Part shown: positions 45,135 through 64,000 of the stretch, in pieces | How the letters are laid out: every line of letters begins with the position of its first letter | Position numbering within the stretch: position 1 is the first letter of the stretch | NCBI RefSeq assembly: GCF_053078305.1 | Contig: NZ_CP166879.1 | DNA: 64,000 bases | Reading direction: 5' to 3' (one strand) | Notes under the pieces: generated by a model | Database searches by the model: none | The model's input: only the letters and a program-made list of their open reading frames with translations | Told to the model about the DNA's origin: nothing | Made by a program: the position numbers and the translations under genes

Positions 45135-45148
45135 TTGTTCGGTATCAA
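45135..45148 (-). promoter_or_regulatory. FNR binding site of the dmsA promoter (TTGAT-accg-AACAA on the dmsA strand)
   Basis: Consensus FNR dyad ~175 bp upstream of the dmsA start codon; dmsABC is a classic FNR-activated operon. Confidence 0.7.
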
Positions 45149-45191
45149 AGGGAGACAAAAAAAGCGCCCGCAGGAGGTTTAACGCTACTTA

Positions 45192-45253
45192 CTCCCCTTG
45201 ATGATTTGCTTATTTTTCAATGAGTAAATCAAAACAAGGGGAGCAAATAAGCA
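45192..45253. repeat. Interleaved inverted repeats immediately 3' of int: candidate prophage attL core / Int binding region
   Basis: CTCCCCTTG (45192-45200) and TGCTTATTT (45207-45215) are each repeated in inverted form as CAAGGGGAG (45235-45243) and AAATAAGCA (45245-45253). Confidence 0.4.
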
Positions 45254-45263
45254 CAAGTTACAA

Positions 45264-46256
45264 CTAATCGATGGACAGTTTATGGACACTTTCAGCCAGC
45301 GGATTAAAGCTGATTGCATCCTGTAAAAAGTCCGGCGAAAAATGCGCATACGTCATCGTTTGTTGAATCGTGGCATGGCCCAGGATTCGTTGTAGCGTAA
45401 CGATATTTCCGCCATTCATCATGAAATGTGTAGCGAATGTATGACGCATGACATGGGTGGCCTGCCCTTTCGGTAAGTCCGGCTTCACCTCCTGAAGGAT
45501 CTCCCGAAATCTGAGGTAATCAGCCTGGTACAACAATCCGGTTCTGCGGGTTTTAATTAACGCAAGTACCGCATCAGAAACGGGAACGGCGCGAGATTTT
45601 CCGTTCTTGGTGTTAAAGAACATCACGCGGTTACCTACAATATGTTCCCCACGTAAACCAGCTGCTTCACCCCACCTTGCCCCCGTGGAAAGACACAGAA
45701 TGGCAACACGCCGCGCATCTCCATCGAGTCGTTCAAGCAGTCGTTCAATCTCCTCATCTGAAAGAAAGGCCATCTCTGTGTTCCTGACTTTCAGCTTACG
45801 TATTCCCCGAACCGGGTTTTCGTTATGGAACACCTCACCCTCAATCAGCGAGCTGAACATTGCAGACAAGGCACACAAATCGCGGTTAATGCTGGAAGGC
45901 ATTAACCCGGCCTGTAATTTGTCGGACCGGTACCCGAGCATAAATTTTCGCGTCATCTGACTGGCACGAGGATCACCCATCTCACGGTTTATCTTTTCCA
46001 GTCTGACCCTGTAGGTATCCCCGTAATCCTGGTTACGACCATCAAGCAACCACCAGGCCTCTATCAGTTCGGATAACCGACGCTGATCTGCTGGCTTAGC
46101 CTGCCATGGCTTATCATGAAAATTCTGCAAAACATACCTTTCAAACTCCTGCGCCTTTGACTTCAGGGTAAAAATCTTACGAATCCGCTTTCCTTCCGTC
46201 CCTTGTGGCCTTACATCAACCTTATAACGTCCGTCTTTGAGTTGCTTAATCGACAT
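45264..46256 (-). CDS. int: P2-type tyrosine integrase
   Basis: 330 aa from MSIKQLKDGRYKVDVRP; strong similarity to remembered P2 Int (LSTGARWGEAA, HxxRHTFATHF, ILGHATIQQTMTYAHF); ATG with GGAGGGG Shine-Dalgarno. Confidence 0.9.
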   Translation of the reverse strand: MSIKQLKDGRYKVDVRPQGTEGKRIRKIFTLKSKAQEFERYVLQNFHDKPWQAKPADQRRLSELIEAWWLLDGRNQDYGDTYRVRLEKINREMGDPRASQMTRKFMLGYRSDKLQAGLMPSSINRDLCALSAMFSSLIEGEVFHNENPVRGIRKLKVRNTEMAFLSDEEIERLLERLDGDARRVAILCLSTGARWGEAAGLRGEHIVGNRVMFFNTKNGKSRAVPVSDAVLALIKTRRTGLLYQADYLRFREILQEVKPDLPKGQATHVMRHTFATHFMMNGGNIVTLQRILGHATIQQTMTYAHFSPDFLQDAISFNPLAESVHKLSID

Positions 46257-46325
46257 GATTAGCCCCTCCAACGGATAAATTAACCAAACACTCCCTGCGG
46301 GATGAAACCCGCTCGATGTGTAACG

Positions 46326-46673
46326 TCAGCCAGCATTGCGGCCTGATCGGGATGATTTTTGGGTAACGTCGATTGAAGCCAGATCGCCCTCCGACTGAGA
46401 AGATCCATCAAGAGAGAGAGCCGGGGCAATTTGACCCCCAGCTTCAAACGTTTCATCAGTTGTTAACCAAAGTGCATATTTTTTAAAACGTAAATTTTTT
46501 GTGATCTTTAATAAGATCTCACTTCCGATTCCATCTTGCCTTCCCGTTTCGTAATACCTCTGCGTATTAACAGGAATCCCTGTAAGCTCAAAGAATTGCT
46601 TCCTTGTAAGCCTCTCACTTTTCCGGATCATCAAGATTTTTTCACCGATACTTATTGACAGTGTCGAATTCAT
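46326..46673 (-). CDS. P2 C-type immunity repressor (HTH)
   Basis: 115 aa from MNSTLSISIGEKILMIRKSERLTRKQ; resembles remembered P2 C (EKIVLMRKSEYLSRQQLADLTG, GQIAPAL); upstream of int on the same strand. Confidence 0.8.
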   Translation of the reverse strand: MNSTLSISIGEKILMIRKSERLTRKQFFELTGIPVNTQRYYETGRQDGIGSEILLKITKNLRFKKYALWLTTDETFEAGGQIAPALSLDGSSQSEGDLASIDVTQKSSRSGRNAG

Positions 46674-46774
46674 ACCACTAAAATCCTCGCAAAAGTGTCG
46701 TAATTTCGACATTAAACAAACCAAAACAAACCTTCATAAGGTGCAATAGGCGCACCTGTGCGAGAGGATAACAA

Positions 46775-47299
46775 ATGCGGGACTTCATTGCCGATAAAGA
46801 GTTATCTGACACCGATCACACAACTGGAGCGGCGTACATCAACGCCGATACCAGTCAACAAGAAGCAACAGATAACAACGACGAACAAAAGCCACAGCGC
46901 ACATATAAAAAAGGGGCAACCCTGCGGCTGGATGGCCCAATAGCCGGGCTTTGCTCACTTGAAAAAGGGGCCGCCTACATCGGATTAACAAAAACAGCAT
47001 TACGCGCAGCTCTCCAGCGTAACCAGATGCCAGGGCATAAAACCCGCTCAAACCCTGAAGATGAGAATTCGGATGGTGTTTGGTGGTTTAACGTCAGAGA
47101 GTGGGACAAGCTGGCCGACGAACTCCCGGAATGTGAGCCACCAGAATGGCACAACTGGAAAAGCTACTGGACATACGACCGCCAGAAAAGAAAGTTTACC
47201 CCGGCTGATAAGGAAGATTGCCAGACCGTCAATGGAAAACGGGTTTACAAAGGCAGAAAGTCAAAGCTGGAACAGAGCCAGGATGTAAACGAACGGTGA
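46775..47299 (+). CDS. Cox-like excisionase/early regulator with N- and C-terminal extensions; start uncertain
   Basis: The central segment ATLRLDGPI...AAYIGLTKTALRAAL...DGVWWFNVREWD aligns by eye with P2 Cox; first gene of the rightward early operon, divergent from C. Confidence 0.55.
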   Translation: MRDFIADKELSDTDHTTGAAYINADTSQQEATDNNDEQKPQRTYKKGATLRLDGPIAGLCSLEKGAAYIGLTKTALRAALQRNQMPGHKTRSNPEDENSDGVWWFNVREWDKLADELPECEPPEWHNWKSYWTYDRQKRKFTPADKEDCQTVNGKRVYKGRKSKLEQSQDVNER

Positions 47300-47305
47300 T
47301 GAACG

Positions 47306-47701
47306 ATGAGCGGCAAAAATAAGTCAGAAAAAAACACAACCGTCCTTAAGCAGTTAAGCCTCCTGAAAGAGGAACACAAGGACGCCACGATACTGATGCA
47401 TCTGGAAGGCTCACCGAAAATAACAATCACAACAACCTATAGCGAGTTACACAAAGAGCTTGAAGGATTAATTAACTTTTGTTCAAAGCTAAAAGCGAAT
47501 GAAAACATTGATGACCTGATACTTAAACCAGAAGCAGAGTTCGGGCACTTTTGCGAAAGTAGAGAAAATGGATGCATCGGAATAATGCTATACGCAACCC
47601 GCGGAATAATGATTAATCTGCCCGTTGAGCAGGCTGTGGATATATTCGGAGAAATGGCACTTAATAAAACCACTATTTACAAAAGAAAAATGCCGGAGTA
47701 A
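47306..47701 (+). CDS. Hypothetical phage early protein (lower-GC moron candidate)
   Basis: 131-aa ORF starting 7 nt after the cox-like stop; GC ~40% by hand count against ~55-60% in the rest of the prophage. Confidence 0.5.
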   Translation: MSGKNKSEKNTTVLKQLSLLKEEHKDATILMHLEGSPKITITTTYSELHKELEGLINFCSKLKANENIDDLILKPEAEFGHFCESRENGCIGIMLYATRGIMINLPVEQAVDIFGEMALNKTTIYKRKMPE

Positions 47702-47714
47702 CCCGGCATGGTTA

Positions 47715-47909
47715 TTAGTATGTTGGTCCCTTAGAAAAGTTCCAGGAACTCTTGCGAGGGTATTTATGAAGTACTTTTTCGCGGACATCGTTAGCCAGAT
47801 CTCTGATTTGATCGTGCTTATCATCAGAAGACGGAGGAACTTCGGGGATTTTATCCACGATTTCAATTACTGATTTAAGCATTTTTATTAATTCATCGTC
47901 GTAAGACAT
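47715..47909 (-). CDS. Hypothetical small protein, reverse-oriented inside the early operon
   Basis: 64 aa from MSYDDELIKMLKS with a perfect AGGAG Shine-Dalgarno 6 nt upstream; convergent with the 47306 gene; lower GC. Confidence 0.5.
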   Translation of the reverse strand: MSYDDELIKMLKSVIEIVDKIPEVPPSSDDKHDQIRDLANDVREKVLHKYPRKSSWNFSKGPTY

Positions 47910-48016
47910 TGTTATCTCCTTTTTCTGGTTGTGTGGAAACACCAGAATACCACGCGCCGGGCGTGGTTAAACATCCCGGCACTGATTTTCATTTAACTTA
48001 AACGGGGTTTTCCGAT

Positions 48017-48355
48017 ATGACACAGCGACGCAGCTTCCGCACTGGCGCAGAACGCCACGCAGCCCGTTTCTCAACCAGCGCATCACGCAGCAACTCGCAC
48101 TACAGCCTGCAGGAAACGCACGCCACACCTGACGGGCATCCGGTTAAACAAACCGGTAAACACACCTGGCTGATTAATGATGCCGGAATTGTCATTCACC
48201 GGGGCGCACGCAACCCGATTACCGGAAATACCTGTTACTCCCTGACTCGCGGAGATGAGCAGTTCGGGCAGGATTTCACCCTGCACGAAGCATTAAGAAC
48301 GGCAGACCGGTTAATCAGCGGTCGCAGTTTTCAGCACCCGGAACATCGCCGCTGA
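48017..48355 (+). CDS. Hypothetical phage early protein
   Basis: 112-aa ORF in the early operon; no recognisable motif. Confidence 0.45.
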   Translation: MTQRRSFRTGAERHAARFSTSASRSNSHYSLQETHATPDGHPVKQTGKHTWLINDAGIVIHRGARNPITGNTCYSLTRGDEQFGQDFTLHEALRTADRLISGRSFQHPEHRR

Positions 48356-48374
48356 TAAATAAAAGGATTCAGCC

Positions 48375-48617
48375 ATGATCGAAGCCTACAAAATACTTAT
48401 TAATAATGCGTTGCAGCGTTATCACTTCGAACTCGCAAACCGGGGGGTAACCCGGGACGAAGGACTTCGTAACTCACTGCGGGGCGCAATTATGGGACTG
48501 TATAACTGCGCACTGGGCAGCGATGACCGCGAAGCACTGGAAGAATTAAAAGTTATTGTGGCCGAACTGTTTGAAGGTGAAATCGTTGAGCCTTATTTCA
48601 CAGAGGTGGCAGCATGA
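48375..48617 (+). CDS. Hypothetical phage early protein
   Basis: 80-aa ORF with AAGGAT Shine-Dalgarno; stop overlaps the next start (ATGA). Confidence 0.5.
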   Translation: MIEAYKILINNALQRYHFELANRGVTRDEGLRNSLRGAIMGLYNCALGSDDREALEELKVIVAELFEGEIVEPYFTEVAA

Positions 48618-48739
48618 GCGTATTTCTTTCATGGGTGATTCTGATTATTTCCGTGCTTATGGCGATTGGCATTATGCGAATTATCGAAGCGCTGAAAAAT
48701 ATCGAATCTTTATTTACTGGCGAAGAACGCCGTAAATAA
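48614..48739 (+). CDS. Small hydrophobic (single-TM) peptide, translationally coupled
   Basis: 41 codons MSVFLSWVILIISVLMAIGIMRIIEALKNIESLFTGEERRK; absent from the ORF track (<60 aa); ATGA overlap with the upstream gene. Confidence 0.4.
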   Translation: MSVFLSWVILIISVLMAIGIMRIIEALKNIESLFTGEERRK

Positions 48740-48818
48740 ATAACCAACCGGACAGAAAACATTAAAACCATCCGCATCTGCGGAGGGCTTCACTCAATCC
48801 AGAAACGGAGAAACAGCT

Positions 48819-49097
48819 ATGAGCACCAATACACCTACAGAAATAAACAAACTATTTACCGACCCGGCGCATATTGAATTGACGCAAAAAACGCTGACTG
48901 AAATAACCAATGTACTGGATGAAAGAATATCAGAAATAGATAAAGACAAGCATTTTGCTACTTACATGGCCCTGCAAATGCAAAGCATGGCAATGGTGAC
49001 AGCAAAACAGACCATCAGTGAACTCTATATGAAAAACCTGCGCCTTGAGCACGAACTGGCAGAACTCCGGGCACAGTCCGGCCAGTTTTCAGCGTGA
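48819..49097 (+). CDS. Hypothetical phage early protein
   Basis: 92-aa ORF with ACGGAG Shine-Dalgarno; helical C-terminus. Confidence 0.5.
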   Translation: MSTNTPTEINKLFTDPAHIELTQKTLTEITNVLDERISEIDKDKHFATYMALQMQSMAMVTAKQTISELYMKNLRLEHELAELRAQSGQFSA

Positions 49098-49108
49098 GGG
49101 GCAGGACG

Positions 49109-49360
49109 ATGAACAGCATATTTACCGCCACAAGACGAACCCTGCTGACGCATTTCACCGATGCCGCGGGCCGCGAATTCATGGTGGAAAGTTATTTAAT
49201 CACAACGACCACGCCGTGCCCGTCAGACGCTGATTATCTCTACATCCATCTGGCTGACGGAACACAAATCACCGCGATTGCCAGTACCGTTCGCGAAGTA
49301 ATGACCATCAGAGGGGCATGGAAATCAGAAACACAAGCCCACGGAGAGCTGCGGCCATGA
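49109..49360 (+). CDS. Hypothetical phage early protein
   Basis: 83 aa from MNSIFTATRR with GAGGGG Shine-Dalgarno; stop overlaps the next start. Confidence 0.5.
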   Translation: MNSIFTATRRTLLTHFTDAAGREFMVESYLITTTTPCPSDADYLYIHLADGTQITAIASTVREVMTIRGAWKSETQAHGELRP

Positions 49361-49569
49361 TCAGCAAGTACACCACCAACGCACGTAAACCCGGTAAAGA
49401 CGCACGCCACCACATCGCCGTACTCCGCAATCTGTTACTGGAGGAAATCGACGACTTCACGGCGACGCTGAGCGGTCCGGGCGCACCAGTAACACCAGGT
49501 GAGATCCACCGGGACCTTAAACGCCGTATTGAAAACGCCATTGATTACACCCTGAACCCGACCGAATAA
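49357..49569 (+). CDS. Hypothetical phage early protein
   Basis: 70 aa from MISKYTTNARKPGK; ATGA coupling to the upstream gene. Confidence 0.45.
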   Translation: MISKYTTNARKPGKDARHHIAVLRNLLLEEIDDFTATLSGPGAPVTPGEIHRDLKRRIENAIDYTLNPTE

Positions 49570-49595
49570 CCGGAACAGTAACGGAGGTTATCGCG

Positions 49596-50150
49596 ATGAG
49601 ACTTACACCAATGGGAATACCGGGCAAAGCCCCGGCACATGTGAAGGCGTGGACACAGCAGGAAGATCGGTTACTCATCTCGCTTTATCAGGAACACAAC
49701 ACACATCAGATGGCTGAACGAATTCAGCGAACCCGTAAAGCAGTTATGCACCGGATTCGTTTTTTACGTAATCGTGGGCTGATTGGCCGCAAGAGAAAAG
49801 CACCACTGAGTACAGAAGCCATAGCCTTTCTTATTAAAAACCGTCATGTAAAAACCGCACAGGAAATGGCTCTGGAAGTGGGATGTAGTGAGTGCACAGT
49901 GAGGTACACACTGCGTAAACGGGGTTACAACCTGAAAAAATGCGGTGAGAACCACCATTGCGCCAGATACAGCGATCATCTGGTTGAGCTGGTCACGGAG
50001 CTACGCGACATACACAACATGACGTTCTGCATGATCGCTGAACACATCAACAGCACGATACAGATGCACATTAACGACGATGCGGCGTTTCATCTCTACC
50101 ACCGCCGCACAGCGGCTGACGCCGCGCTCTGTGAACTGTTACCGGGCTGA
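49596..50150 (+). CDS. Putative DNA-binding early protein with two HTH-like segments
   Basis: 184-aa ORF with GGAGG Shine-Dalgarno; two helix-turn-helix-like stretches judged by eye; no family assigned. Confidence 0.5.
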   Translation: MRLTPMGIPGKAPAHVKAWTQQEDRLLISLYQEHNTHQMAERIQRTRKAVMHRIRFLRNRGLIGRKRKAPLSTEAIAFLIKNRHVKTAQEMALEVGCSECTVRYTLRKRGYNLKKCGENHHCARYSDHLVELVTELRDIHNMTFCMIAEHINSTIQMHINDDAAFHLYHRRTAADAALCELLPG

Positions 50151-50269
50151 GTGATCATCATGCACACACAAAAAAACCGCTTGCCATGCCGCAATCAGTC
50201 AGGTTACATTCCCACTGCACCTCATAAAACGGGTGCCGGGATTACCACCCCGCCGACTACACAAGCGCA

Positions 50270-50291
50270 CAACCGCGCCAGCGGTTTTTTT
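50270..50291 (+). terminator. Intrinsic terminator inside the prophage early region
   Basis: AACCGC-gcca-GCGGTT hairpin followed by TTTTTTT. Confidence 0.5.
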
Positions 50292-50470
50292 GTGCGTACT
50301 GTATCGCCACGTCTTTTTCGCGTCAGAATTATGGCGGGGCGTACGGGGCCGACTTCGGTCGGGCCGGGGTCTTGTGTAGCCGGTTGTGGTAACCCTGTAC
50401 GTCTCGCCACCCTGAGATTACCGCCTCGGGTTGGTGAGTTTTCACAACTTACTACACAAGGGGCCACACC

Positions 50471-50698
50471 ATGGCAAACCGCAAACAACAGCGCGTCCGC
50501 GCTGAGCGTCTTCACATCCGCACCGAAATCAACCGCAGACTCTGGCGCGCATCACGCGTCGCGCAAATCATGTACATCAACATGCTGCATGAACACGCAC
50601 ACGCGCTGTCAGACCGTTACTGTGCCGCCGTCTTCAGCTACCTGGCGGATGACCTGGCAGAGCTGCAGGACCTTATCAACCAGCAACACCACCACTAA
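50471..50698 (+). CDS. Hypothetical phage protein
   Basis: 75-aa ORF with AAGGGG Shine-Dalgarno; basic N-terminus, His-rich C-terminus. Confidence 0.45.
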   Translation: MANRKQQRVRAERLHIRTEINRRLWRASRVAQIMYINMLHEHAHALSDRYCAAVFSYLADDLAELQDLINQQHHH

Positions 50699-50766
50699 AC
50701 AACATCCTGAAGCCATCCCGCACCCGTGCGCGGGAGGCTTCCGCACGTCTGTTACCGGAGGTTCTC

Positions 50767-51189
50767 ATGAAGAACGTTAAGGGACTTTCAGATATTCAGG
50801 ATTTTTTTAACTGGATGTGGGCAGTGGATCCCCGGCTGGCTTCCCGCCTGAACGACTGGCACGACTATTACCGCCGCGCCTGTAAACAGGCCGCCAGACG
50901 CGTCACCACATACGGGGATTTCTCCTTCACCGTTGACGGCAGTTACCGCGTGGACGTGAAAGGCGATGGTGATGGTTTTGGTTTTGGTTTATTTCACATC
51001 AACGGAACCGACAGCACCGCCATCAGCTGGTCGTCGTCAGAGATGACGCTTGTTCTGGAAATGACAAACCACAGCGTGGCCGTGAAAGGTATATACACCG
51101 CAGAAGACTTTATCGGTGAATACCAGCGCCTTCTCGTGCTGTACCGGGCAGCGTTTCAGGCGGCAACTGCCGGGGAGTGCGACGCATGA
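50767..51189 (+). CDS. Hypothetical phage protein
   Basis: 140-aa ORF with GGAGG Shine-Dalgarno; stop overlaps the gpA start (ATGA). Confidence 0.5.
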   Translation: MKNVKGLSDIQDFFNWMWAVDPRLASRLNDWHDYYRRACKQAARRVTTYGDFSFTVDGSYRVDVKGDGDGFGFGLFHINGTDSTAISWSSSEMTLVLEMTNHSVAVKGIYTAEDFIGEYQRLLVLYRAAFQAATAGECDA

Positions 51190-53705
51190 GCGACCATAAC
51201 GCACAACTGGCGTACCCGTGGAACGCCCCGCTGCCGGTTATCGATCCTGAAACGTTCGGCAGAGCGCAACCAACCGCATTACGCCAGGCCATTCAGAGCT
51301 ACATCAACGAAGACATTCGCACTGACGCCAGACTGGATGAAGAAACCGTCGCCTTCCTGACAACCACAGACGAAGGGAAGCGAATTAATTCGCATCTTCA
51401 CCACGACGAAGAGCGTCGGATCAGACTGGAAAAACTGACGCGACACAAACGCGAAAATCCACCCACGCTGGTATCTGAAGCCATGGCAGAGCTGCGCGCC
51501 CTGCCGCCGTTTCTTGCCGGTCCGCTCATCCGTGACCTGGCCCGCCTGAGCCGCAAACAGGAGAGCGCACGCCGGGAAGGGCTTAAGAATAACAGCGCAT
51601 ATGCGGCGGATAACTTCGTTCGTCACGGCCTGCGTGCCCGCCTGAAACGTATCGCCCGTGTGAATGAACGCTTTGCCACCCCGGCCTTTAAGGCCACCGC
51701 CGCCCGCGAACGGCTGGATGAACTGCTTATGCTGCCGCAGCTGAGCCGTGACGAAATCCAGCGCCTTGCCACCCTGACCGCCACCGCGTTTTCCGCCGCA
51801 CTGGAGCGCGCATGTGATGAGGTCATCGAAAAGACCGGCAGGGGTGACGATGACCTGTTCACCTGGTTACTGACCTACCAGCCACTGGCACGCATGGCGT
51901 TAAAACTGGGTATCACACCACCCTGCTGGCCGTCGCTGGAAATCAGACCCGACCGCCGCACCGCCCCCGACCCGGAACAGGTGCCGGGTGCGGTCATGCG
52001 CCTTTCCTGTGCGACATGGTGGAACAGTCAGTTAAGACACCTCCGGGACATCTGGCGTGAAGAGCTGTTACGCGCCGCAGGTCTGGTGTCACGTAAGACA
52101 TCGGTATATATCAGCCATGAAGCGTTACTGGACTGGCGCGAAAAACGCCAGCGCACCCGCGATTTTCTGAAGGCCTGGGACATCGAGAACGAAGAGGGAG
52201 AACGGTTCAGCCTTGAGGATATCTACTGGGCAGGTCTCTCTAATCCGCGTAACCGCCGTAACGAGATGATGGCCTGCGTCCGGGGAATGGAGCAGGTCGC
52301 CGAAGCACGCGGCGACCTGGCGTTTTTCGTCACCGTCACAGCCCCTTCCCGTTTTCACAGCGTGAACGATGACGGCAGCCTGAACCCGAAATACTGCGGA
52401 GCAACGGTACGTGATGCCAGTGATTATCTGGTTTACCGCTTTTTCGCCGCCGTCCGCAGGGCCATCAACAAGGCCGGGCTGGGCTGGTACGGCGTGCGCA
52501 CAGTGGAGCCCCACCACGACGGTACACCGCACTGGCACATGCTGGTATTCACCAGCCCGGAAAACGAAGCCCGTATCACTGAAATCATGCGCAACGCCGC
52601 CATCAGGGAGGACCGCGCAGAGCTGGGTGATGATATCTCCCCGCGTTTTAAATGCGAAAAAATCGACCCGGCAAAAGGCACACCGGCGAGCTATATCGCG
52701 ACCTATATCGGTAAGAACCTGGACGCCAGCGCCTTCATGGGGAATGACCCGAAAACCGGCAAACCTTACGTCGATAAGGAATCAGGCAAAACCATGGCCG
52801 AAACCGTGGAGAACGCCATCGGCTGGGCGGCCCTTCACCGCATCCGCCAGTTCCAGTTCTTCGGTATCCCTCCCCGCCAGGTATGGCGCGAACTCCGCCG
52901 CCTTGCCGGGCAGATGGCCCGTAACCCGGCTGCCCCGCAGCGTCTGGACCATGACGACATTGACGCCATACTGGCCGCCGCCGACGTGGGATGTTTTGCC
53001 ACCTATATCACCCGCCAGGGTGGTGTGCTCATTCCCCGCAACACGTACCTGGTCCGCACCGCATACGAAACTGCCGAAGAGGCCAACGACTACGGCGAAT
53101 TCCCGCAACGCATTTACGGCGTCCGCGCCCCGTCACTCGGGGAGCGCTACACCATATGCACCCACCCGGACACCTGGAAACTGGTCAGACGTAAGCCGGA
53201 AAACGAAGACCGCACGGACGAGGGTTTTGACGTTGAGTGCGGCTTTGCCGCACCTTGGACTCGTGGCAATAACTGTCCCCCTGACCAGAATCTGACCATA
53301 AACGACCCGCCAGAAAGGCAGCCGGACGGACGCAGGGAGCAGCGACTTACCCTGCCGGAAGGTGATTTGGGTGAATGGTTAAGGTCACTGACCCCCACAG
53401 AGCGAAAACAACTCACCAGGCAGCTGAAAAACCCGCCACCTGACACGGAAACCGTGAAAAACGGCGGCATCAGTGCGCCCGCTGGCGGCGTTCGCGTGAG
53501 TGTCGCACTGACCGCTGAGCCACACATCACCGCACAAATCACCCGTGAGCTTGATGCGCTGGGCGTGCAGCTGCATGAAAGCGCCGTCGTTTCCGTCCGG
53601 CACGGTGCCCGCGTGCGCCTGGCTGACGGGCGCACCGCGTACTGGAATGACAGCACCCGCCGCATTGATATCACCCCCGCACCGAATACGGAGGCGCCAC
53701 AATGA
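51186..53705 (+). CDS. Rolling-circle replication initiator endonuclease (P2 gpA-like)
   Basis: 839 aa from MSDHNAQLAYPW (ATG with GGGGAG Shine-Dalgarno; the ORF track uses a GTG 9 nt upstream); HUH motif GTPHWHMLVF; size and position as in P2/186. Confidence 0.85.
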   Translation: MSDHNAQLAYPWNAPLPVIDPETFGRAQPTALRQAIQSYINEDIRTDARLDEETVAFLTTTDEGKRINSHLHHDEERRIRLEKLTRHKRENPPTLVSEAMAELRALPPFLAGPLIRDLARLSRKQESARREGLKNNSAYAADNFVRHGLRARLKRIARVNERFATPAFKATAARERLDELLMLPQLSRDEIQRLATLTATAFSAALERACDEVIEKTGRGDDDLFTWLLTYQPLARMALKLGITPPCWPSLEIRPDRRTAPDPEQVPGAVMRLSCATWWNSQLRHLRDIWREELLRAAGLVSRKTSVYISHEALLDWREKRQRTRDFLKAWDIENEEGERFSLEDIYWAGLSNPRNRRNEMMACVRGMEQVAEARGDLAFFVTVTAPSRFHSVNDDGSLNPKYCGATVRDASDYLVYRFFAAVRRAINKAGLGWYGVRTVEPHHDGTPHWHMLVFTSPENEARITEIMRNAAIREDRAELGDDISPRFKCEKIDPAKGTPASYIATYIGKNLDASAFMGNDPKTGKPYVDKESGKTMAETVENAIGWAALHRIRQFQFFGIPPRQVWRELRRLAGQMARNPAAPQRLDHDDIDAILAAADVGCFATYITRQGGVLIPRNTYLVRTAYETAEEANDYGEFPQRIYGVRAPSLGERYTICTHPDTWKLVRRKPENEDRTDEGFDVECGFAAPWTRGNNCPPDQNLTINDPPERQPDGRREQRLTLPEGDLGEWLRSLTPTERKQLTRQLKNPPPDTETVKNGGISAPAGGVRVSVALTAEPHITAQITRELDALGVQLHESAVVSVRHGARVRLADGRTAYWNDSTRRIDITPAPNTEAPQ

Positions 53706-54106: not shown

Positions 54107-54154
54107 ACAAAGACCATGAACATAACCAGAAACAGCCAACTAAAGGAGCGCACC

Positions 54155-54688: not shown

Positions 54689-54713
54689 CGAAGCAGCAGA
54701 CAAGCGAAGCGCG

Positions 54714-54977: not shown

Positions 54978-55014
54978 CTTACCTCCCGATAACACGTATC
55001 CCGGGGAAGACATT

Positions 55015-56067
55015 TTACCCGACCGGCACCACTTTTTCTTCCGCCACATGCCCGGCTTCCACATCAAAACGAAGATAAAGGTGTTCCGGTATATCGGGAT
55101 CGCTGTTCACGGCGTTCATGATTTTACGCTGAAGCGGTATCACCTCATCCTTGCGGTACGTTTCACGCGTCGTTTCCGGGTTAGGGATGGTGGCCCCGTT
55201 CGTGGGGATGATCCCCGCAAGACCGGCAGGAAAGCGGTGTGCCGTAAACACATCCTGGGCGCTGATCCCCTTGATGTTTGAAAATTCATCCTTGGCGCTC
55301 ACCTCACCAATCGGAATAATTTTCACCCCATCCGGCGAACCTTTGGGGATGTTGATGTACAGATTGCGGAAATTTCCCAGCCCCTTAGACTCCGCCACCT
55401 TCTCGCGGATCTCATCCTCCATCTCCGTGGTGATCCCAGGGTCGTTCGTATACAGCAAAAAGCCCATATGCGCCCCGTTGTTGTAGTAACGGCGACGAAA
55501 AAGGCTGGCCTCGCTGTTCAGCAGCGCCGAGTGAATGCCACCGATATAATCCGGCAGCCCGTAAATTTGCTGACGCGGATCATACATCCGCAGAAAGATA
55601 ATATCTTCCGGCGTATAGACCAGCGCGGGACCTTCCTGAAGCACCACGAACTCACCGGTTTTGCGGCGCCGGAGATACAGCGACGGAAGCGGCTCAAGTG
55701 CCACGACGTCGCCGAATACGTTACGCACCTTGAGCAGGGCGAGATCGCCGAACAACAGGTAGTCAAATACCGCCTGTTCCATCTGGTCCGTTGTGAGGCC
55801 ACCACCGGTATAGCCCCCCGCCACCATGTTACGGCGGGCATACAGCACCCCACCGTGCTGGGCGTTAAGGTTCGGGAGCTGCGCCAGTGCCAGGCGGTTA
55901 ATCGGCAGCTGCCAGTGGTTGTGTTCGTTGTCATACCAGATGTTATGGTAGTCCGTGCCGGTGGTCAGCACCGGTTCCGGCTGACCAAACGTGATTGTGC
56001 TGCCACGTGCGGGCGTGAATGCTTTTTTCGTCACGCGTGACGTTTTGTTTCTGCGTTTCTTGCTCAT
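55015..56067 (-). CDS. Portal protein (P2 gpQ-like)
   Basis: 350 aa from MSKKRRNK, ATGA-coupled to the terminase stop; size and position as P2 Q. Confidence 0.75.
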   Translation of the reverse strand: MSKKRRNKTSRVTKKAFTPARGSTITFGQPEPVLTTGTDYHNIWYDNEHNHWQLPINRLALAQLPNLNAQHGGVLYARRNMVAGGYTGGGLTTDQMEQAVFDYLLFGDLALLKVRNVFGDVVALEPLPSLYLRRRKTGEFVVLQEGPALVYTPEDIIFLRMYDPRQQIYGLPDYIGGIHSALLNSEASLFRRRYYNNGAHMGFLLYTNDPGITTEMEDEIREKVAESKGLGNFRNLYINIPKGSPDGVKIIPIGEVSAKDEFSNIKGISAQDVFTAHRFPAGLAGIIPTNGATIPNPETTRETYRKDEVIPLQRKIMNAVNSDPDIPEHLYLRFDVEAGHVAEEKVVPVG

Positions 56068-57890: not shown

Positions 57891-58035
57891 CCGGCCCGCA
57901 TTCAGGCAGAAAATTTCGGCTGTGTTCGGCTATCCCGCGTTATCCGAAGACAGCCGAATTCAGCCAGTAGCCCCCCGCTGTAAAAATCCCGACACTCACC
58001 GGAGTTCTTCAGATTTTCACGTAAAAGAGGCCACG

Positions 58036-59085
58036 ATGCCGCAGCCAACGTTGATGACCGACTGGATATGTATCGCCACATCAGGACCGACCGTTGACGG
58101 CCGCGAAATTGATCCGCAGTGGCTGACTGATGCCGCTGAAACCTATTCCCGCAACACCTACACGGCGATGCTGTGGCCCTGGCATGAGGAAGAAATCGGA
58201 CACCGCCAGTACACCAGTAATCTGGGTGAAGTGGACTCACTGAAAGCGGAAACCGGCGAGGACGGTAAAACCCGCCTCTACGCACGGCTGGTCCCTAACC
58301 AGTACCTGATTGAAGCCAACAGACTGGGGCAGAAGCTGTTCACATCCGCCGAGATAGTGGAGAACTTCGCCCGGAGCGGACGCGACTATCTCCTGGGCGT
58401 GGCGGTGACGGATATCCCCGCCAGTCTGGGGACGGAAAAAATCCGCTTCACCCTGAACAACGAGGAATACACGGCACAGCGGGCGAACTGCCAGACGTTC
58501 ACGCTGGGCAGCCTGTCACCGGACACCTCCCCGCCCCCCCGTAAACCTGAATCATTCCTGAAACGCCTGTTCAGCGCAGGACAGACCGACAACACCGACA
58601 CCAGTAAGCCTGATACAGGCGAGGACGCAAAAATGGACGAAATTAAAGCACTGCTTGAAAAGCTGATCACCCTGGTGGAAGGCGGCAGCGCCGCTGCCGC
58701 TGGCGAGGGCACAGCAGACACACCGGAAGAAGCAAAAGCCGAAGTCGCGGAAATCGCCGCCGAAATCGCCGATGCCGCCGCAGAGGTGGCAGAACTGGCA
58801 GAAGAAGTGGAAGCCGCCCCGGAAGATGAGGTTAAGGCTGAAGCCTTCAGCGCCGCGAAAGCGAAGCTGGAAGACGCGATTAAAGCGTTCAGTGCCATCA
58901 CACCGGAAAAAGGCGAACGTTACCGCCGCTTTGCCGCCCGTCGCCGGGACGACACCGACAAAGAAGAAATCAAAGCTATTGCCGAAAAACTTAACGACCT
59001 GACCACGAAGCTGTCAGCAACCGGCATCACGCCACGACCGGCTGGCACACCGGCAGAAAGCGAAAAACCGTTTGACTTTGTTTAA
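58036..59085 (+). CDS. Capsid scaffolding protein (P2 gpO-like)
   Basis: 349 aa from MPQPTLMTDW with AAGAGG Shine-Dalgarno; LLGVAVTDIPASLGTE resembles P2 gpO LVGLAVTDDPASLGTE; Ala/Glu-rich helical C-terminal half. Confidence 0.75.
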   Translation: MPQPTLMTDWICIATSGPTVDGREIDPQWLTDAAETYSRNTYTAMLWPWHEEEIGHRQYTSNLGEVDSLKAETGEDGKTRLYARLVPNQYLIEANRLGQKLFTSAEIVENFARSGRDYLLGVAVTDIPASLGTEKIRFTLNNEEYTAQRANCQTFTLGSLSPDTSPPPRKPESFLKRLFSAGQTDNTDTSKPDTGEDAKMDEIKALLEKLITLVEGGSAAAAGEGTADTPEEAKAEVAEIAAEIADAAAEVAELAEEVEAAPEDEVKAEAFSAAKAKLEDAIKAFSAITPEKGERYRRFAARRRDDTDKEEIKAIAEKLNDLTTKLSATGITPRPAGTPAESEKPFDFV

Positions 59086-59096
59086 GGACACGCAAC

Positions 59097-60125
59097 ATGC
59101 AACTGAACCAGAAAACCGAATCACTGCTTCGTAAGTACGCTGCCGGACTGGGCGCGGCAAACGGGGTTGACGACGTCACACGCTATTTTGCGCTGTCTGA
59201 CCCGAAGGAGACCGCGCTGCGTGACGCCATCATGCACTCCGACGAGTTTTTATCAAAACTGCCGAACGTGCTGGATGTTGAACAGGTGACAGGCCAGGTG
59301 GTTACCACCGGCGTTCCGGGCCTCCATACCGGACGTAAAAAAAATGCCCGTTTCACCCTTCCGCTGGGTGTTACCGGGAATGAATACAAGCTGGCTGAAA
59401 CCGATTCCGGTGCCCACCTCCTGTACACCACACTGGTCACCTGGGCAAACGCAGGCGGTGAAAACGAGTTCTTTAACCGCATTCAGAATTTTGTTAACAG
59501 ACAGATCGCGCTGGATATCCTGCGCATCGCCTTTAACGGTACCAGCGTGGCCGAAGATACCGACCCGGTAACCAACAAAAACGGCGAGGACGTCAACACC
59601 GGCTGGCATGCCATCGTCAAAGGCCGCAGCGCAAAACAGATCGTGGAGGCTGGCCCGACGCTGGGCAAGGGTGGCGACTTTATCGGGCTGGATGCAGCCG
59701 TGGCAGACCTCGTGCACACCCTCATTGATGAGTCGTATCGCGGTCATCCGGATCTGGTGGTACTGGTTGCGCCCGATCTTGTGGCACAGGACAAGGTGAC
59801 GCTGCTTAACGCCATCGACGCCCCCACGGAAAAAGTGGCCGCGCAGCTTATCGGTCGCCAGATCGCCGGGCTGACAGCATACACCCCGCCGTTCATGCCG
59901 GAAGGACGCCTGATTGTCACCACGCTGGCAAACCTTCACATCTACACGCAGCGCGGCACCCGTCAGCGCCGTGCGGAGTGGAACGACGATCGCAAGCGTT
60001 TTGAAAACAACTATCTGCGCATGGAAGGTTACGCCGTGGAGCACGACGAAATTTACGCGGCCTACGACAAGCTGACCATCAAGGGCGCAGAAGCGGCAGA
60101 AGAGCCCGCATCTGGCGGCGCATAA
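59097..60125 (+). CDS. Major capsid protein (P2 gpN-like)
   Basis: 342-aa ORF; GKGGD...LDA and HPDLVVLV motifs resemble P2 gpN; position after the scaffold gene. Confidence 0.8.
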   Translation: MQLNQKTESLLRKYAAGLGAANGVDDVTRYFALSDPKETALRDAIMHSDEFLSKLPNVLDVEQVTGQVVTTGVPGLHTGRKKNARFTLPLGVTGNEYKLAETDSGAHLLYTTLVTWANAGGENEFFNRIQNFVNRQIALDILRIAFNGTSVAEDTDPVTNKNGEDVNTGWHAIVKGRSAKQIVEAGPTLGKGGDFIGLDAAVADLVHTLIDESYRGHPDLVVLVAPDLVAQDKVTLLNAIDAPTEKVAAQLIGRQIAGLTAYTPPFMPEGRLIVTTLANLHIYTQRGTRQRRAEWNDDRKRFENNYLRMEGYAVEHDEIYAAYDKLTIKGAEAAEEPASGGA

Positions 60126-60142
60126 GCACAGAGGGCGGCGCA

Positions 60143-60841
60143 ATGACACCCTGCCAGCGACACCGGGCGAAAATCCGCACACAGGAGGCACTCGAACGCC
60201 GGGAGGCGCTGACGGCCTCCCCGGTCAGCTTCCACCTGTTACGCGCGGAGCTTGATCGCGATGTGGCACGGCTGCGCAGTCTTCCGGTCCGTGAAGAGCG
60301 GCTGGCGTTCAAGCGCGACATTCTCCTGCCGCGCTGGCTGCCCGTCGCGGAGCGCTATATCGCTGACGGAAAGCGCCACGCCTGCCCGGTACTGGTGTAC
60401 TGCATCATCTGGCTGTTCGACACGGGCGACCTGAGTCGCGCCCTTGACTGGGCAGACATTGCCATCAGTGAAGGCCAGGCCACGCCGGACAACTTCCGCA
60501 GCACCCTGCCCGCCTTCGTGGCAGACACGGTGCTGCAGTGGGCCACCGACAACAGCGAGGCCGGACACAGCATAGAACCGTATTTTTCGCGCACCTTCAG
60601 GAACGTCACCACCTCGTGGCGGCTGCATGAGGAAATCCGCGCGAAGTGGTTCAGATTTGCCGGGCTGTATCTTCTGCGCGACGAGGCGGGCAAACCGAGA
60701 GCCACCGCGATTAATGATACTGCCGTACTGGAAAAGGCAGACGCATACCTGGCACAGGCGGCAGCACTGAGCCGTACCGCTGGCGTAAAAAGTATCAGGG
60801 CGCGCATCAGGGCACGCATCAGCGCCCTTAATGCAGCGTAA
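60143..60841 (+). CDS. Terminase small (endonuclease) subunit (P2 gpM-like)
   Basis: 232-aa ORF after the capsid gene with AGAGGG Shine-Dalgarno; gene order. Confidence 0.7.
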   Translation: MTPCQRHRAKIRTQEALERREALTASPVSFHLLRAELDRDVARLRSLPVREERLAFKRDILLPRWLPVAERYIADGKRHACPVLVYCIIWLFDTGDLSRALDWADIAISEGQATPDNFRSTLPAFVADTVLQWATDNSEAGHSIEPYFSRTFRNVTTSWRLHEEIRAKWFRFAGLYLLRDEAGKPRATAINDTAVLEKADAYLAQAAALSRTAGVKSIRARIRARISALNAA

Positions 60842-60948
60842 ACGACTACCCGCAGGGCCGGGCGGGCGCGGGAGGAGGCATCAGTGACGGAAACTGTATG
60901 GCCGTGGAATCCCGGACAGCCCGCCTTTTTATTCATATGAGGCACGTC

Positions 60949-61422
60949 ATGAGCGAACCGAGCTTCAGCGTCAGCGGTAAACCGCTGAAATCCACACCGC
61001 AGACGGTGACAAACGGCGAGCCGTTCTGGCCGGACCTTAATCTGGCTGAGCTTCAGGGGTCACGCACGCTTCCGGCTGATTTACCCGACGACACGGCGGC
61101 CATGGCGCTACTTGCCGCAGTGGCCGAGGTAAACACCACGCTGGCGCCGGTTGTGGCGCACTGGAAGGCGCAGGGGCATGAACGCGCCGCAGACGTACCG
61201 GGGGCCAGGCTGGGCGATGAAACCCAGCTGGTCGCACAGTACAAAAAGGCCGTTTATGCCCGTGCCAAGGCCGATCTTATGGGCGAGTTCGCCACCATTG
61301 GTCGCCGTGAAACCTATCCGGGGCAGGAAAGCGAGGACACACGCGCCACCTTACTGGCTGAAGCCTCGCTGGTCATGCGTAACATGCTGGGGCACAGACG
61401 CGCGGGAGTGCACATTATATGA
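60949..61422 (+). CDS. Head completion/stabilisation protein (P2 gpL-like)
   Basis: 157 aa from MSEPSFSVSG; WPDLNLAEL...AVAEVN...YKKAVYARA resembles remembered P2 gpL. Confidence 0.65.
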   Translation: MSEPSFSVSGKPLKSTPQTVTNGEPFWPDLNLAELQGSRTLPADLPDDTAAMALLAAVAEVNTTLAPVVAHWKAQGHERAADVPGARLGDETQLVAQYKKAVYARAKADLMGEFATIGRRETYPGQESEDTRATLLAEASLVMRNMLGHRRAGVHII

Positions 61423-61892
61423 ACCAGCTGGAAAGCCTGACCGCCTTCATTACCGAAAATCTGCCGCCTGACGCCATGCAGTTCTTCATGAGCAGTCAGG
61501 AAGACGCGCAGCTTATCCGCAGTCAGAAGGCGCTGGGTAACGACCAGATCCGCATGGGCGTGATGACGTACACCGGCGTGATTGCATGGGATAACTTCCC
61601 GTTCCGCAAATACTCACCGGGGCTGGTTTACGCGCTGGTCATGGCCTGGCTGGAAGAGCACGCGGACCCGCTGAGGGAGGAATTCCGCCCGGAGGATGTG
61701 AACGTCGACCCGCAGTTTAACGATGAGGACTCGTGCCTTCTCGATATCACGGTGGGACTGGCTGACCCGCTGATCATCCGGGTTCAGGAAGACGGCCCCG
61801 TTCCGTACAGGGGGAAACGCTGGACACTGGTTAACCCTGAAATCTGGACGGCGGAAACCATGGATCTGTTTGTCAGCAGGAGCCGCGAATGA
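61419..61892 (+). CDS. Putative tail completion protein (gpR-like)
   Basis: 157-aa ORF ATGA-coupled to gpL; weak by-eye resemblance to P2 gpR (LVYALVMAWLEEHADP). Confidence 0.4.
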   Translation: MNQLESLTAFITENLPPDAMQFFMSSQEDAQLIRSQKALGNDQIRMGVMTYTGVIAWDNFPFRKYSPGLVYALVMAWLEEHADPLREEFRPEDVNVDPQFNDEDSCLLDITVGLADPLIIRVQEDGPVPYRGKRWTLVNPEIWTAETMDLFVSRSRE

Positions 61893-62599
61893 TAAGCGGC
61901 CAGCTGAACCCGCAGCAGCTGGCAGAAGCACAGGCGATGCTTCAGTCGCTGGATCTGCCCCCGAAAAAACGCCGTCGCCTGTTATGGCGTATTGCCCGGC
62001 ACGGCATTATCGCCGCTGCCAGACGCCATCAGCGCGATCAGGCCGCACCGGACGGTACAGCATGGGCACCCCGGAAACGCGGTAAGGGGAAAATGTTCAG
62101 AAAGCTGCCGCGTCTTCTGGCGGTCCGTGAGATGCCCGGACAGGATGCCGTAAAGGTTTATTTCCGTAACGGCAATCACACCAGTGGCAGGAGCCGCATC
62201 AGTGCCGGTGCCGTGGGCTGGGTTCACCACAACGGCGCAGAAATCCGGGTCAGTGCTGACAGCTTCAGCGGTCAGGACCAGAACGGGCAGACCGCCACCC
62301 GCCGACAGGCAAAACGACTGCGGGAGCTGGGCTTTAAGGTACGCCAGAAGGGGCGCTGGCGGAAAGCATCCATGAAATACCTGTTAACGCTTTCGCGGGC
62401 GCAGGCCGGGTTGCTGATCACCATTATGGAAGATCAGATTATCGCCGGACCACGCCAGCAGAAGGCCCGGACATGGACCATTACCCTTCCGTCGCGCGTC
62501 TTTCTGGGGGTAACAAACGAAGAATTTTCACACATCCTGGCACGCCAGATGAACGCAATGGGCTACGGCCTGGACGTTGACGCACAGGATATCAGATAA
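61889..62599 (+). CDS. Putative virion morphogenesis / tail completion protein (gpS / Mu G-like)
   Basis: 236-aa ORF ATGA-coupled to the upstream gene; position in the head-tail joining module. Confidence 0.4.
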   Translation: MISGQLNPQQLAEAQAMLQSLDLPPKKRRRLLWRIARHGIIAAARRHQRDQAAPDGTAWAPRKRGKGKMFRKLPRLLAVREMPGQDAVKVYFRNGNHTSGRSRISAGAVGWVHHNGAEIRVSADSFSGQDQNGQTATRRQAKRLRELGFKVRQKGRWRKASMKYLLTLSRAQAGLLITIMEDQIIAGPRQQKARTWTITLPSRVFLGVTNEEFSHILARQMNAMGYGLDVDAQDIR

Positions 62600-62610
62600 G
62601 GAGTCACACC

Positions 62611-63756
62611 GTGAGCTGGCCGAATGTAACCGTAAGCCATCAGAACCGTTTCAACGGTGCCACCCGTGAAGTGGAGCGCACGCTGCTTTTTGTGGGCTAT
62701 GGCAAAAAGAACACAGGTAACACCCTTTCCGTCTCCCCTGAGACCGACCTGGACGACGTGCTGGGACCGGATGAAAGCCTGCTTAAATCCACGCTTACCG
62801 CCGCAATCGCCAACGGTGGCCAGAACTGGTTTGCCTATGTTCACGTTCTGTCTGAACCCAAACCCCCGGCACCGGAGGGTGGCGACGCTAACGCCGCATG
62901 GGTGGACGCGGTGAAAAAAGCGCAGACCATTGCTTCTGCCGAGGGCGTGGTGATTGCCATTGACATCACGGCCAAAGATGCCGTTAACCGCGCCACCGAA
63001 ACCCGCGCCCTGCTTCAGTCCGCTTATGGCCGCTTTGTCTGGTTCATGCTGTGCGTGGCCGGACCGGGCAAGGATGAAGCATGGGCGGCATACGTCACCC
63101 GCATCAGTGCCATACAGGACGGCGTGGCAGCACCTGGCGTGATGGTGGTTCCCCGCTTATGGGGAAATGAGCCCGGCGTACTGGCGGGCCGTCTCTGTAA
63201 TCCTTCCGTCACCGTTGCGGACAGTCCGGCACGTGTGGCAACCGGTGCCCTGGTGGCGATGGGTAACGATGAGATCCCGCAGGACGGCAAGAAACAGCCC
63301 CTTGAGCTGGCCACGCTGCGCTCGCTGGAAGGCAAACGCTTCAGCGTGCCCATGTGGTATCACGATTTCGACGGGCTCTACTGGTCAGACGGACGCACCC
63401 TTGATGTGGAGGGGGGCGATTACCAGGTCATCGAAAACGTGCGCGTGGTGGATAAGGTCTCCCGCCGTGTACGTCTGCGCGCCATTGCCCGCCTTGCGGA
63501 TCGCGCACTCAACAGCACACCGGGCAGCATTGCCGCCAGCCAGACATATTTCAGCCGCACGCTGCGTGAAATGGCGCTCGCCACGGAGATTAACGGCGTA
63601 CCGTTCCCCGGCGAGGTTAAACCGCCACAGGACGGGGATATCACCATCGTCTGGACCAGCAGTACACACGTGCAGATTTACATTGTGGTACGCCCCTACG
63701 AGAGCGCAAAAGCCATTGGCGTAAGTATTGAACTCGACACAGCACTGGAGATCTGA
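62611..63756 (+). CDS. Putative tail sheath-type structural protein (GTG start)
   Basis: 381-aa ORF with TAAGGAG Shine-Dalgarno, followed immediately by a small structural ORF; assignment by position only. Confidence 0.35.
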   Translation: MSWPNVTVSHQNRFNGATREVERTLLFVGYGKKNTGNTLSVSPETDLDDVLGPDESLLKSTLTAAIANGGQNWFAYVHVLSEPKPPAPEGGDANAAWVDAVKKAQTIASAEGVVIAIDITAKDAVNRATETRALLQSAYGRFVWFMLCVAGPGKDEAWAAYVTRISAIQDGVAAPGVMVVPRLWGNEPGVLAGRLCNPSVTVADSPARVATGALVAMGNDEIPQDGKKQPLELATLRSLEGKRFSVPMWYHDFDGLYWSDGRTLDVEGGDYQVIENVRVVDKVSRRVRLRAIARLADRALNSTPGSIAASQTYFSRTLREMALATEINGVPFPGEVKPPQDGDITIVWTSSTHVQIYIVVRPYESAKAIGVSIELDTALEI

Positions 63757-63757
63757 C

Positions 63758-64000
63758 ATGGCCGGAAATGAACGTATCAGCGGCGGCGCGTTTGATATCA
63801 ACTACGACGGGATCATGATCCACGTGGAAAGCGCCACCGTCACCATCACCGACAACAGCGCCGTGGCACAGACGCGCGGCGTGCCGAACGGCTACACCCG
63901 TGGTTCTGTTTCTGCCGATGTGGAGGTGGAAGTCGACGCGCAGAACTTTAAAAAGTTTGGTGCCGTGGCCCGCTCTGCGGGGTCGTGGCGTGCCATTCCT
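63758..64000 (+). CDS. Putative tail tube-type structural protein (partial, runs off the window end)
   Basis: ATG at 63758 with GGAG Shine-Dalgarno; open frame to the window end (MAGNERISGGAFDINYDG...). Confidence 0.3.
   Translation, partial: MAGNERISGGAFDINYDGIMIHVESATVTITDNSAVAQTRGVPNGYTRGSVSADVEVEVDAQNFKKFGAVARSAGSWRAIP

Follow-up and report, generated by a model that had tools for sequence, protein, structure and literature searches.

The stretch of DNA analyzed here (64,000 nucleotides of contig NZ_CP166879.1 from NCBI RefSeq assembly GCF_053078305.1, referred to as the window) very probably carries, from position 45175 to its end at 64000, the left 18.8 kb of a P2-family (Peduoviridae) temperate prophage that encodes a P2-type tyrosine integrase (Int) and has the terminator of the host gene serS as its bacterial attachment site (attB). 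The assignment to the Peduoviridae was based on the models for the P2-family major capsid protein (TIGR01551, major_capsid_P2, 281.1 bits against a curated cut-off of 219.65) and portal, both of which scored above their cut-offs, together with matches for Int, repressor, Cox, gpA, Ogr, terminases, scaffold, adaptor and tail sheath (Table 1). Each visible prophage gene was an intact open reading frame (ORF) with a full-length family match, and the genes for portal and terminase large subunit (TerL) (55015-57890, minus strand) were divergent from those for scaffold, capsid, terminase small subunit and head completion (58036-61422, plus strand), giving the arrangement Q-P divergent from O-N-M-L. 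An earlier note drawn up from the letters of this DNA had proposed a P2-family prophage with the early and head gene order of P2; both proposals held, with the capsid model above its cut-off, a gpA-type nuclease, Cox and Ogr, and with the left attachment site (attL), int, C, cox, gpA and the two divergent head blocks recovered in that order. A P4-like satellite or another type of integrative element was ruled out, as capsid, portal, terminases, scaffold and sheath were all present.

Integration within the serS terminator

On the host side, identity with E. coli K-12 MG1655 extended from dmsA through the dmsA promoter and stopped at window position 45174. In K-12 the next gene past dmsA is serS, with its stop codon 28 bp beyond the core defined below, and the serS-dmsA intergenic region, which reads gggagacAAAAAAAGCGCCCGCAGGCGCTTTTTagattc, contains the intrinsic terminator of serS, a hairpin of AAAAAGCGCC-UGCG-GGCGCUUUUUUU (-15.4 kcal/mol by folding) with a U7 tail. 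On the window strand this terminator hairpin between serS and dmsA, AAAAAAAGCGCC-CGCA-GGCGCTTTTT, constitutes attB. The window junction reads gggagacAAAAAAAGCGCCCGCAGG and then aggtttaacgctac. The window holds the left 18.8 kb, with the right attachment site (attR) beyond 64000, and the core match was judged in E. coli N51, whose prophage is 98-99% identical to window 45175-64000 and at its far end reads ccactaaaaccaCCCGCAGGcgctttttagattc, followed directly by serS. The sole stretch common to attB, attL and N51 attR was the 8-bp sequence CCCGCAGG, which was therefore taken as the core; it spans the loop of the hairpin and the two adjoining base pairs of either stem arm. The core-to-core distance in N51 gave a phage genome of ~33.6 kb, and strain 602354 had an empty site. 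A difference between BLAST end points (575 and 581) was put down to an extension artefact, four of the six next bases matching by chance.

From these junctions the phage attachment site (attP) would read AAAACCA-CCCGCAGG-AGGTTTAA, an imperfect inverted repeat, which outside the core resembles the attB sequence AAAAGCG-CCCGCAGG-CGCTTTTT. The junction of the excised circle is predicted to contain AAAACCACCCGCAGGAGGTTTAACG, and the attR of the window's own contig is expected to read ...CCACCCGCAGGCGCTTTTTAGATTC and then serS, ~33.6 kb from 45167. The host stretch to the left of the core (atcaaagggagacaaaaaaagcg, 45144-45166) is similar to part of the phage P' arm (aacaaggggagcaaataagca, 45233-45254), and in the fold predicted for the attL transcript it can base-pair with the inverted copy of that arm segment at 45190-45202; the likeness between 45144-45166 and 45233-45254 may be due to chance in A-rich DNA.

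The dmsA promoter lies close to this junction. A pattern search upstream of dmsA returned TTGTTCGGTATCAA as the sole match with one mismatch to the FNR pattern TTGATN4ATCAA; the dmsA site published by Bearson et al. in 2002 reportedly reads TTGATaccgAACAA. The distal edge of the FNR site is 26 bp from the junction and 38 bp from the first inverted-repeat arm of the phage. The FNR site of dmsABC has been tabulated at -41.5 (PMC3688515), so that, with the site at 45135-45148, the FNR-dependent dmsA start would fall at about 45100 and the host/phage junction at about -75 of dmsA P1.

The earlier note had stated that host synteny ends after dmsA and that the K-12 neighbor of dmsA is serS, and both statements were borne out, by the end of K-12 identity and by the K-12 annotation; an intact K-12-like dmsA-serS spacer, which it had proposed looking for, was not found, the spacer being broken at 45174/45175, and the matching core that it expected at the far end was present in the N51 prophage. 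Its placement of interleaved inverted repeats within ~45 bp of the FNR site, followed by a P2-type integrase, also agreed with the present data. The prophage start was put at 45135, which is the FNR site, and has to be moved to 45167/45175. The location of the insertion next to the FNR-regulated dmsA promoter was correct, and the target can now be specified as the intrinsic terminator hairpin of serS.

The phage DNA next to the core contains three interleaved pairs of inverted repeats (45186-45200/45235-45249, 45202-45214/45219-45231 and 45207-45215/45245-45253) in a region that folded better than 200 out of 200 shuffled sequences (z = -3.9), and the block CTTATTTTTCAA was invariant among relatives. 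A conserved RNA or DNA structure was rejected for these repeats: in an alignment of eight sequences, which included too few distinct ones for statistics, the outer stem CTCCCCTTG/CAAGGGGAG was partly kept with one compensatory change and the two other pairs were not conserved, as judged by eye. Beyond this region, the P' arm repeats were unchanged in 8/8 aligned relatives, even though these had diverged. The encoded Int shared 54% aa identity with P2 Int over its full length (330 aa, E 2e-137), including alignment of the R..HxxR..Y region, and 88.8% aa identity with the integrase of vB_EcoM-569R5. At the other end, the attR arm of N51 showed a terminator, the P-arm pair ATGGACG and CTGGACA 11 bp apart (positions 13720-13737 of locus L003), the A/T block ctttattttcaatatgtta and the core.

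Taken together, this organization is similar to that of P2 (Peduovirus P2, NC_001895), for which attP is annotated as the ogr terminator, an Int P-arm site, an integration host factor (IHF) site, a 27-bp core, a Cox site and a P'-arm site that overlaps int at its 3' end. Here the order is a terminator, two arm repeats, an IHF-like A/T block, the core, a spacer and two arm repeats that extend into the 3' end of int. Specifically, the arm motif (A)TGGACA has its counterpart in TGTGGACA, found twice in P2 at the same place relative to int, and the A/T block of the N51 attR arm resembles the P2 IHF-site sequence cttttatttcaatttattg. The two phages differ in attB and core, the core here being 8 bp long and placed in the loop of the serS terminator, compared to 27 bp in P2.

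Distribution, alternative sites and state of the prophage

Across 5426 complete E. coli genomes, the serS-dmsA attB was empty in 5077 and split in 348 (~6%), and in 344 of the 348 split-site genomes this integrase type was joined to dmsA. The insertion thus interrupts the K-12 arrangement, as stated in the earlier note, but is not confined to a single strain as the note's term “strain-specific” implied, since relatives occupy the site in ~6% of genomes. The variant found in the window (≥95% identity) was present in ten genomes, eight times at serS-dmsA, once at the ihfB terminator upstream of ycaI and once at the rraA terminator. At the ihfB terminator (ycaI side), strain JNEC-KY171 carries an identical integrase protein and a 98-99% identical attL arm; at the rraA terminator, the attL arm of strain OkiPb01677 is also 98-99% identical and the integrase is annotated under a different protein accession. 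The serS, ihfB and rraA targets are all terminators with an A-tract, GC-stem, loop, GC-stem and T-tract. In the window itself, the secondary site that is occupied in JNEC-KY171 is present in empty form at 23229-23256, as the ihfB terminator (AAAAAAGCACCCGACAGGTGCTTTT), which lies upstream of ycaI.

A literature search on prophages or P2-like integrases at serS-dmsA found no paper naming this attachment site. The host/phage boundary is now fixed to the base and the attachment site named as the serS terminator loop, a terminator used at the above frequency by essentially one integrase lineage. In other respects the element is an unremarkable temperate member of a well-known phage family, and its integration site is a common one among E. 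coli genomes.

The recurrence of the junction also bears on whether phage DNA might have been placed beside dmsA by an assembly artefact or by a rearrangement that is not site-specific. Nothing favors such an event beyond the visibility of one end only, and the same junction was found base for base in eight other complete genomes, the attL junction sequence was common to 334 genomes at ≥80% identity, and attL, attR and attB relate to each other exactly as site-specific recombination predicts. This explanation, which is refuted by the N51 attR core, by the junctions of p11B-type relatives and by the recurrent attL junction, was given a negligible probability.

Very probably, the integrase recombined the phage attP with the terminator hairpin between serS and dmsA, with strand exchange inside the 8-bp CCCGCAGG, and the resulting left junction consists of the host A-tract and 5' stem, the core and the phage P' arm with its inverted-repeat stretch and two ATGGACA Int sites; by analogy with P2, integration would involve Int with IHF, and excision Cox in addition. 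The att layout shared with P2, core, junction, gene content and population frequency are observations, and on this view integration and excision would run as in P2 and the window copy would be complete and active. Several points weigh against this view. The right half and attR lie outside the window, and completeness and the matching core were seen solely in relatives. The Cox- and IHF-binding roles of the inverted repeats, and the operators of the early promoter (Pe) described below, are assigned by position, and when the attL arm and the Pe/Pc region were searched for common k-mers, no shared motif apart from CAAAACAA emerged, with no Cox box called. The dmsA start near 45100 is derived from the published -41.5 spacing and not from data on this strain. 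Finally, the tail-fibre gene of N51 is annotated as broken, so that this phage type may include defective copies.

The last point, in which the closest complete relative has its tail-fibre gene annotated as two partial pseudogenes, would fit a defective, immobile P2-like remnant in place of a functional prophage, as would the visibility of the left 18.8 kb only and the lack of a close isolated phage in INPHARED, where the best record reached 17% coverage at 81.6%. Such a remnant is nevertheless improbable, given that all visible genes are intact and have full-length family matches and that 98-99% identical copies occupy three chromosomal sites in different strains, which argues for recent integration events.

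Terminator state and the dmsA promoter

Because only the 8-bp core matches the host in this variant, insertion disrupts the terminator hairpin at attL and leaves a weaker one at attR. Folding showed that the hairpin upstream of the U7 tract was lost at the window attL, and that at the N51 attR serS keeps a weakened stem (GCGCC/GGUGG) with a U4 tail. The p11B-type relatives, which are commoner, share a 20-bp core, AAAGCGCCCGCAGGCGCTTT, with attB and thereby rebuild the whole hairpin at both junctions, the attL hairpin being kept. In the window, int and dmsA are on the same strand, and a consensus scan found no terminator-like site between the int stop codon and the dmsA promoter; the consensus terminator scanner misses the native serS terminator of K-12, in which the A/T tracts pair into the stem, and folding was relied on instead.

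The same hairpin is part of a match to the Rfam family STnc130, which is listed as a putative Salmonella small RNA (sRNA) next to dmsA. The match, on the opposite strand to dmsA, overlaps the promoter and FNR site of this gene and ends in the serS terminator/attB hairpin. The model scored 140.1 bits in K-12, 137.4 bits in a p11B-type lysogen and 122.3 bits in the window, where two of the eight terminator pairs are broken, the U-tail is replaced by phage DNA and the terminal hairpin is no longer intact. If STnc130 is real in E. coli, it would lose its terminator in this lysogen.

These changes raise the question of lysogenic conversion by position, in which the insertion would alter neighboring host expression through read-through of the prophage Pc-C-int transcript past the broken attL hairpin into the dmsA promoter, or through loss of the terminator of STnc130, a putative antisense sRNA, with an effect on the dmsA leader or on int. 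The co-directional arrangement of int and dmsA, the lack of a terminator-like site between them, the loss of the hairpin before the U-tract, the drop of the STnc130 model from 140 to 122 bits with its broken pairs and replaced U-tail, and the replacement of the DNA upstream of ~-75 are in line with this explanation. However, the insertion leaves the FNR site, the -35/-10 region and the entire leader undamaged and almost the same as in K-12, STnc130 is listed only as a “putative sRNA”, and the site is filled in 6% of genomes with most relatives rebuilding the hairpin, which suggests selection for neutrality. Such an effect on host expression was rated as unlikely. The regulation of dmsABC is most likely unchanged, or only subtly changed, since the insertion leaves host DNA across the FNR site, core promoter and leader, and the influence on dmsA regulation suggested in the earlier note is speculation. 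The 210 bp of host DNA between the junction and the dmsA ATG contain a single-nucleotide polymorphism (SNP) relative to K-12, at 45036 (A instead of T). The SNP adjoins a CTATATA...TATACAT motif in the dmsA leader, a possible ModE-type site.

A wider interpretation would combine a terminator-targeting integrase lineage, with the bidirectional serS/STnc130 terminator as primary site, an 8-bp-core variant with relaxed targeting (two of the ten variant lysogens being in other terminators, ihfB and rraA), read-through into dmsABC and loss of the STnc130 terminator. As a whole this combination is doubtful; if true, it would amount to a position-dependent lysogenic conversion of anaerobic respiration control. 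A terminator that serves as attB and whose hairpin is not regenerated would provide a test case for transcription leaking from a prophage position into an oxygen-controlled operon.

Gene content and relationship to named phages

The coordinates of the host and prophage features are given in Table 1. In the switch region, int and C are divergent from cox as in P2, and the direct repeats AGTGTCG(A/T)AA (AGTGTCGAA, 46660-46668, and AGTGTCGTAA, 46694-46703) flank the -10 of the strong Pe-like promoter; they may be operators, resembling P2 O1/O2 around Pe. In the int-C/cox switch region the consensus scan gave no candidate for Pc. The cox product is longer than that of P2 (174 aa compared to 91 aa), and its N51 homologue is labeled “Cox family DNA-binding protein” by PGAP. 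Further along the early operon, isrK and C4 RNA are located in tandem directly upstream of the derepression gene, in a 320-bp stretch that PGAP leaves unannotated in N51; the set is reminiscent of the RNA-controlled antirepressor modules of P1 immI and P4, here within a P2-family phage.

Table 1. Host and prophage features around the left junction and across the visible part of the prophage.
Feature	Position	Strand	Basis or remark
dmsA (host), last host gene before the prophage	42520-44964	-	814-aa ORF; annotated dmsA at the homologous position in K-12 and N51
Rfam STnc130 (RF02084), putative sRNA beside dmsA	45055-45189	+	122.3 bits, gathering score 55
dmsA FNR site TTGTTCGGTATCAA (reverse complement TTGATACCGAACAA), host DNA	45135-45148		Pattern search, 1 mismatch
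Host half of serS terminator (A-tract, 5' stem, loop) AAAAAAAGCGCCCGCAGG	45157-45174		Identical to K-12 up to 45174
attL core/overlap CCCGCAGG (crossover region)	45167-45174		Sole stretch common to attB (K-12), attL (window) and attR (N51)
Inverted-repeat-rich part of P' arm	45186-45253		Repeat search and fold; position of the Cox-binding region in P2 attP
int, P2-type tyrosine integrase, 330 aa	45264-46256	-	phrog_1 integrase, E 1e-72
P' arm-type Int sites ATGGACAGTTT/ATGGACACTTT (ATGGACA direct repeats, 11 bp apart)	45271-45292	+	Overlap 3' end of int
C-like immunity repressor (HTH, helix-turn-helix, 115 aa)	46326-46673	-	phrog_147 transcriptional regulator, E 3e-27; 569R5 homologue annotated immunity repressor GpC
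Pe-like early promoter TTGACA-18-TAAAAT	46655-46703	+	Promoter scan, 11/12 matches; between repressor gene and cox
cox, 174 aa, excision directionality and switch protein	46775-47299	+	Pfam Phage_Cox, E 5e-6; phrog_23196, E 3e-95
Small early-operon genes: 131-aa protein, DUF4761-like, DUF4754-like, 184-aa DNA-binding protein (49596-50150)	47306-50150	+	PHROG; PGAP names in N51
isrK (50217-50291), C4 antisense RNA (50327-50414)	50217-50414	+	Rfam, 63.6 and 79.6 bits, both above gathering scores
75-aa “derepression protein” (antirepressor-like)	50471-50698	+	Pfam Derepression PF25738, E 3e-7; phrog_3688
gpA-type replication endonuclease, 842 aa	51177-53705	+	phrog_91 “nicking at origin of replication”, E 8e-237
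Three small cargo ORFs (134 aa, 69 aa, 131-aa Ren-like/MarR-like) between gpA and ogr	53702-54648	+	phrog_14984, phrog_14672, phrog_142
Ogr/Delta-like late activator	54714-54962	-	phrog_603, E 1.5e-28; N51 homologue in PGAP “Ogr/Delta-like zinc finger protein”
Portal (gpQ-like)	55015-56088	-	TIGR01540, 236.5 bits, cut-off 166
Terminase large subunit (gpP-like)	56064-57890	-	PHROG terminase large subunit families; 76% aa to Irrigatiovirus SI7
Scaffold (gpO-like), P2-family major capsid (59097-60125), terminase small subunit (60143-60841)	58036-60841	+	phrog_73; TIGR01551; phrog_74
Head completion/adaptor, tail terminator, tail completion, tail sheath (62611-63756), start of next gene	60898-64000	+	phrog_71, phrog_65, phrog_26, phrog_907; window end cuts next gene

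ORFs 47306-47701 and 53702-54648 represent variable cargo, the latter located in the gpA-ogr interval, the place of old and tin in P2, and including the Ren-like/MarR-like protein that corresponds to phrog_142. The 131-aa product of ORF 47306-47701 had no match in Pfam, PHROG or PADLOC, ORF 53702-54106 matched nothing in Pfam, and no convincing PADLOC or Pfam match was obtained across 53702-54648; with respect to defence-system cargo, PADLOC gave weak matches of winged-helix type only. The Ogr/Delta assignment is a family match. Of the contractile tail, the sheath (phrog_907, E 1e-146) lies within the window, and tube, tape measure and baseplate J were found in the N51 relative only. Further features shared with P2 are gpA, Ogr, Q-P divergent from O-N-M-L and the genome size of ~33.6 kb, whereas old and tin are absent, the early operon contains the isrK/C4 RNA and derepression-protein module, ogr adjoins the portal gene and is not at the right end as in P2, and sheath and tube follow the head-completion genes with the lysis genes next.

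At the level of nucleotide homology, a megablast search of 45135-64000 against 50,697 phage records returned 20 records, with P2 absent and none above 17% coverage. For TerL, the four best matches, at 76% aa identity, were all from Irrigatiovirus, and the others, including 18 named Peduovirus, were below 60% (next best 58% or less). The genus Peduovirus, or P2 itself, was rejected on the basis of these two results. The prophage is a Peduoviridae mosaic that combines a P88-like early region with an Irrigatiovirus-like virion module and has no close isolated relative, which makes it useful for phage taxonomy and prophage catalogues. Specifically, the Irrigatiovirus Salmonella phages SI7, SW3 and SW5 (Peduoviridae) have their head, neck, sheath, tube, lysis, tape-measure and baseplate genes in an identical order; their TerL ranked top among phage records, and nucleotide identity is ~71% from capsid to tail completion. 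These phages differ from the present prophage in an integrase that is ~50% identical, an early region unrelated at the nucleotide level, their Salmonella host and a genome of ~30 kb as compared to ~33.6 kb.

The prophage records vB_EcoM-569R5, vB_EcoM-705R2 and “Entero_P88” (P88-like, Xuanwuvirus-related) share the early region and gpA at ~81% nucleotide identity over part of the length. The 569R5 record, with its closely related integrase (see above), has dmsA beside int, which indicates the same chromosomal site. The P88-like records cover just 17% of the window prophage, and their core is the whole 20-bp hairpin AAAGCGCCCGCAGGCGCTTT as opposed to the 8 bp found here. The record in question (L007, ON470599.1, “Escherichia phage vB_EcoM-569R5”) is a prophage prediction that includes host dmsA, and its ends are not true phage ends. 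The p11B-type relative differs in that its tail and late genes follow the classical P2 order and ogr is found at its right end. Among complete E. coli genomes none was identical to the window; the best matches showed 96-98% identity over the early region, and 100% identity was limited to the 181-bp junction.

Outside the window, the right ends of related prophages carry, just inside attR, Hok/Gef toxin genes, one to three in tandem and with flanks that are repeated, as observed in N51 (L003 12496-13584), OkiPb01677 (L013 3864-4949) and p11B (L012 11062-11202). The Hok/Gef copies face serS in N51 and p11B, and the OkiPb01677 copy, at the rraA site, is next to zapB.

Elsewhere in the window, ~1.5 kb containing ycaK and most of ycaN is missing in comparison with K-12 and N51, with ~40 unrelated bases at 37108-37149 in its place. 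This scar is flanked by pflA and ycaM, and the last ~110 bp of ycaN are left.

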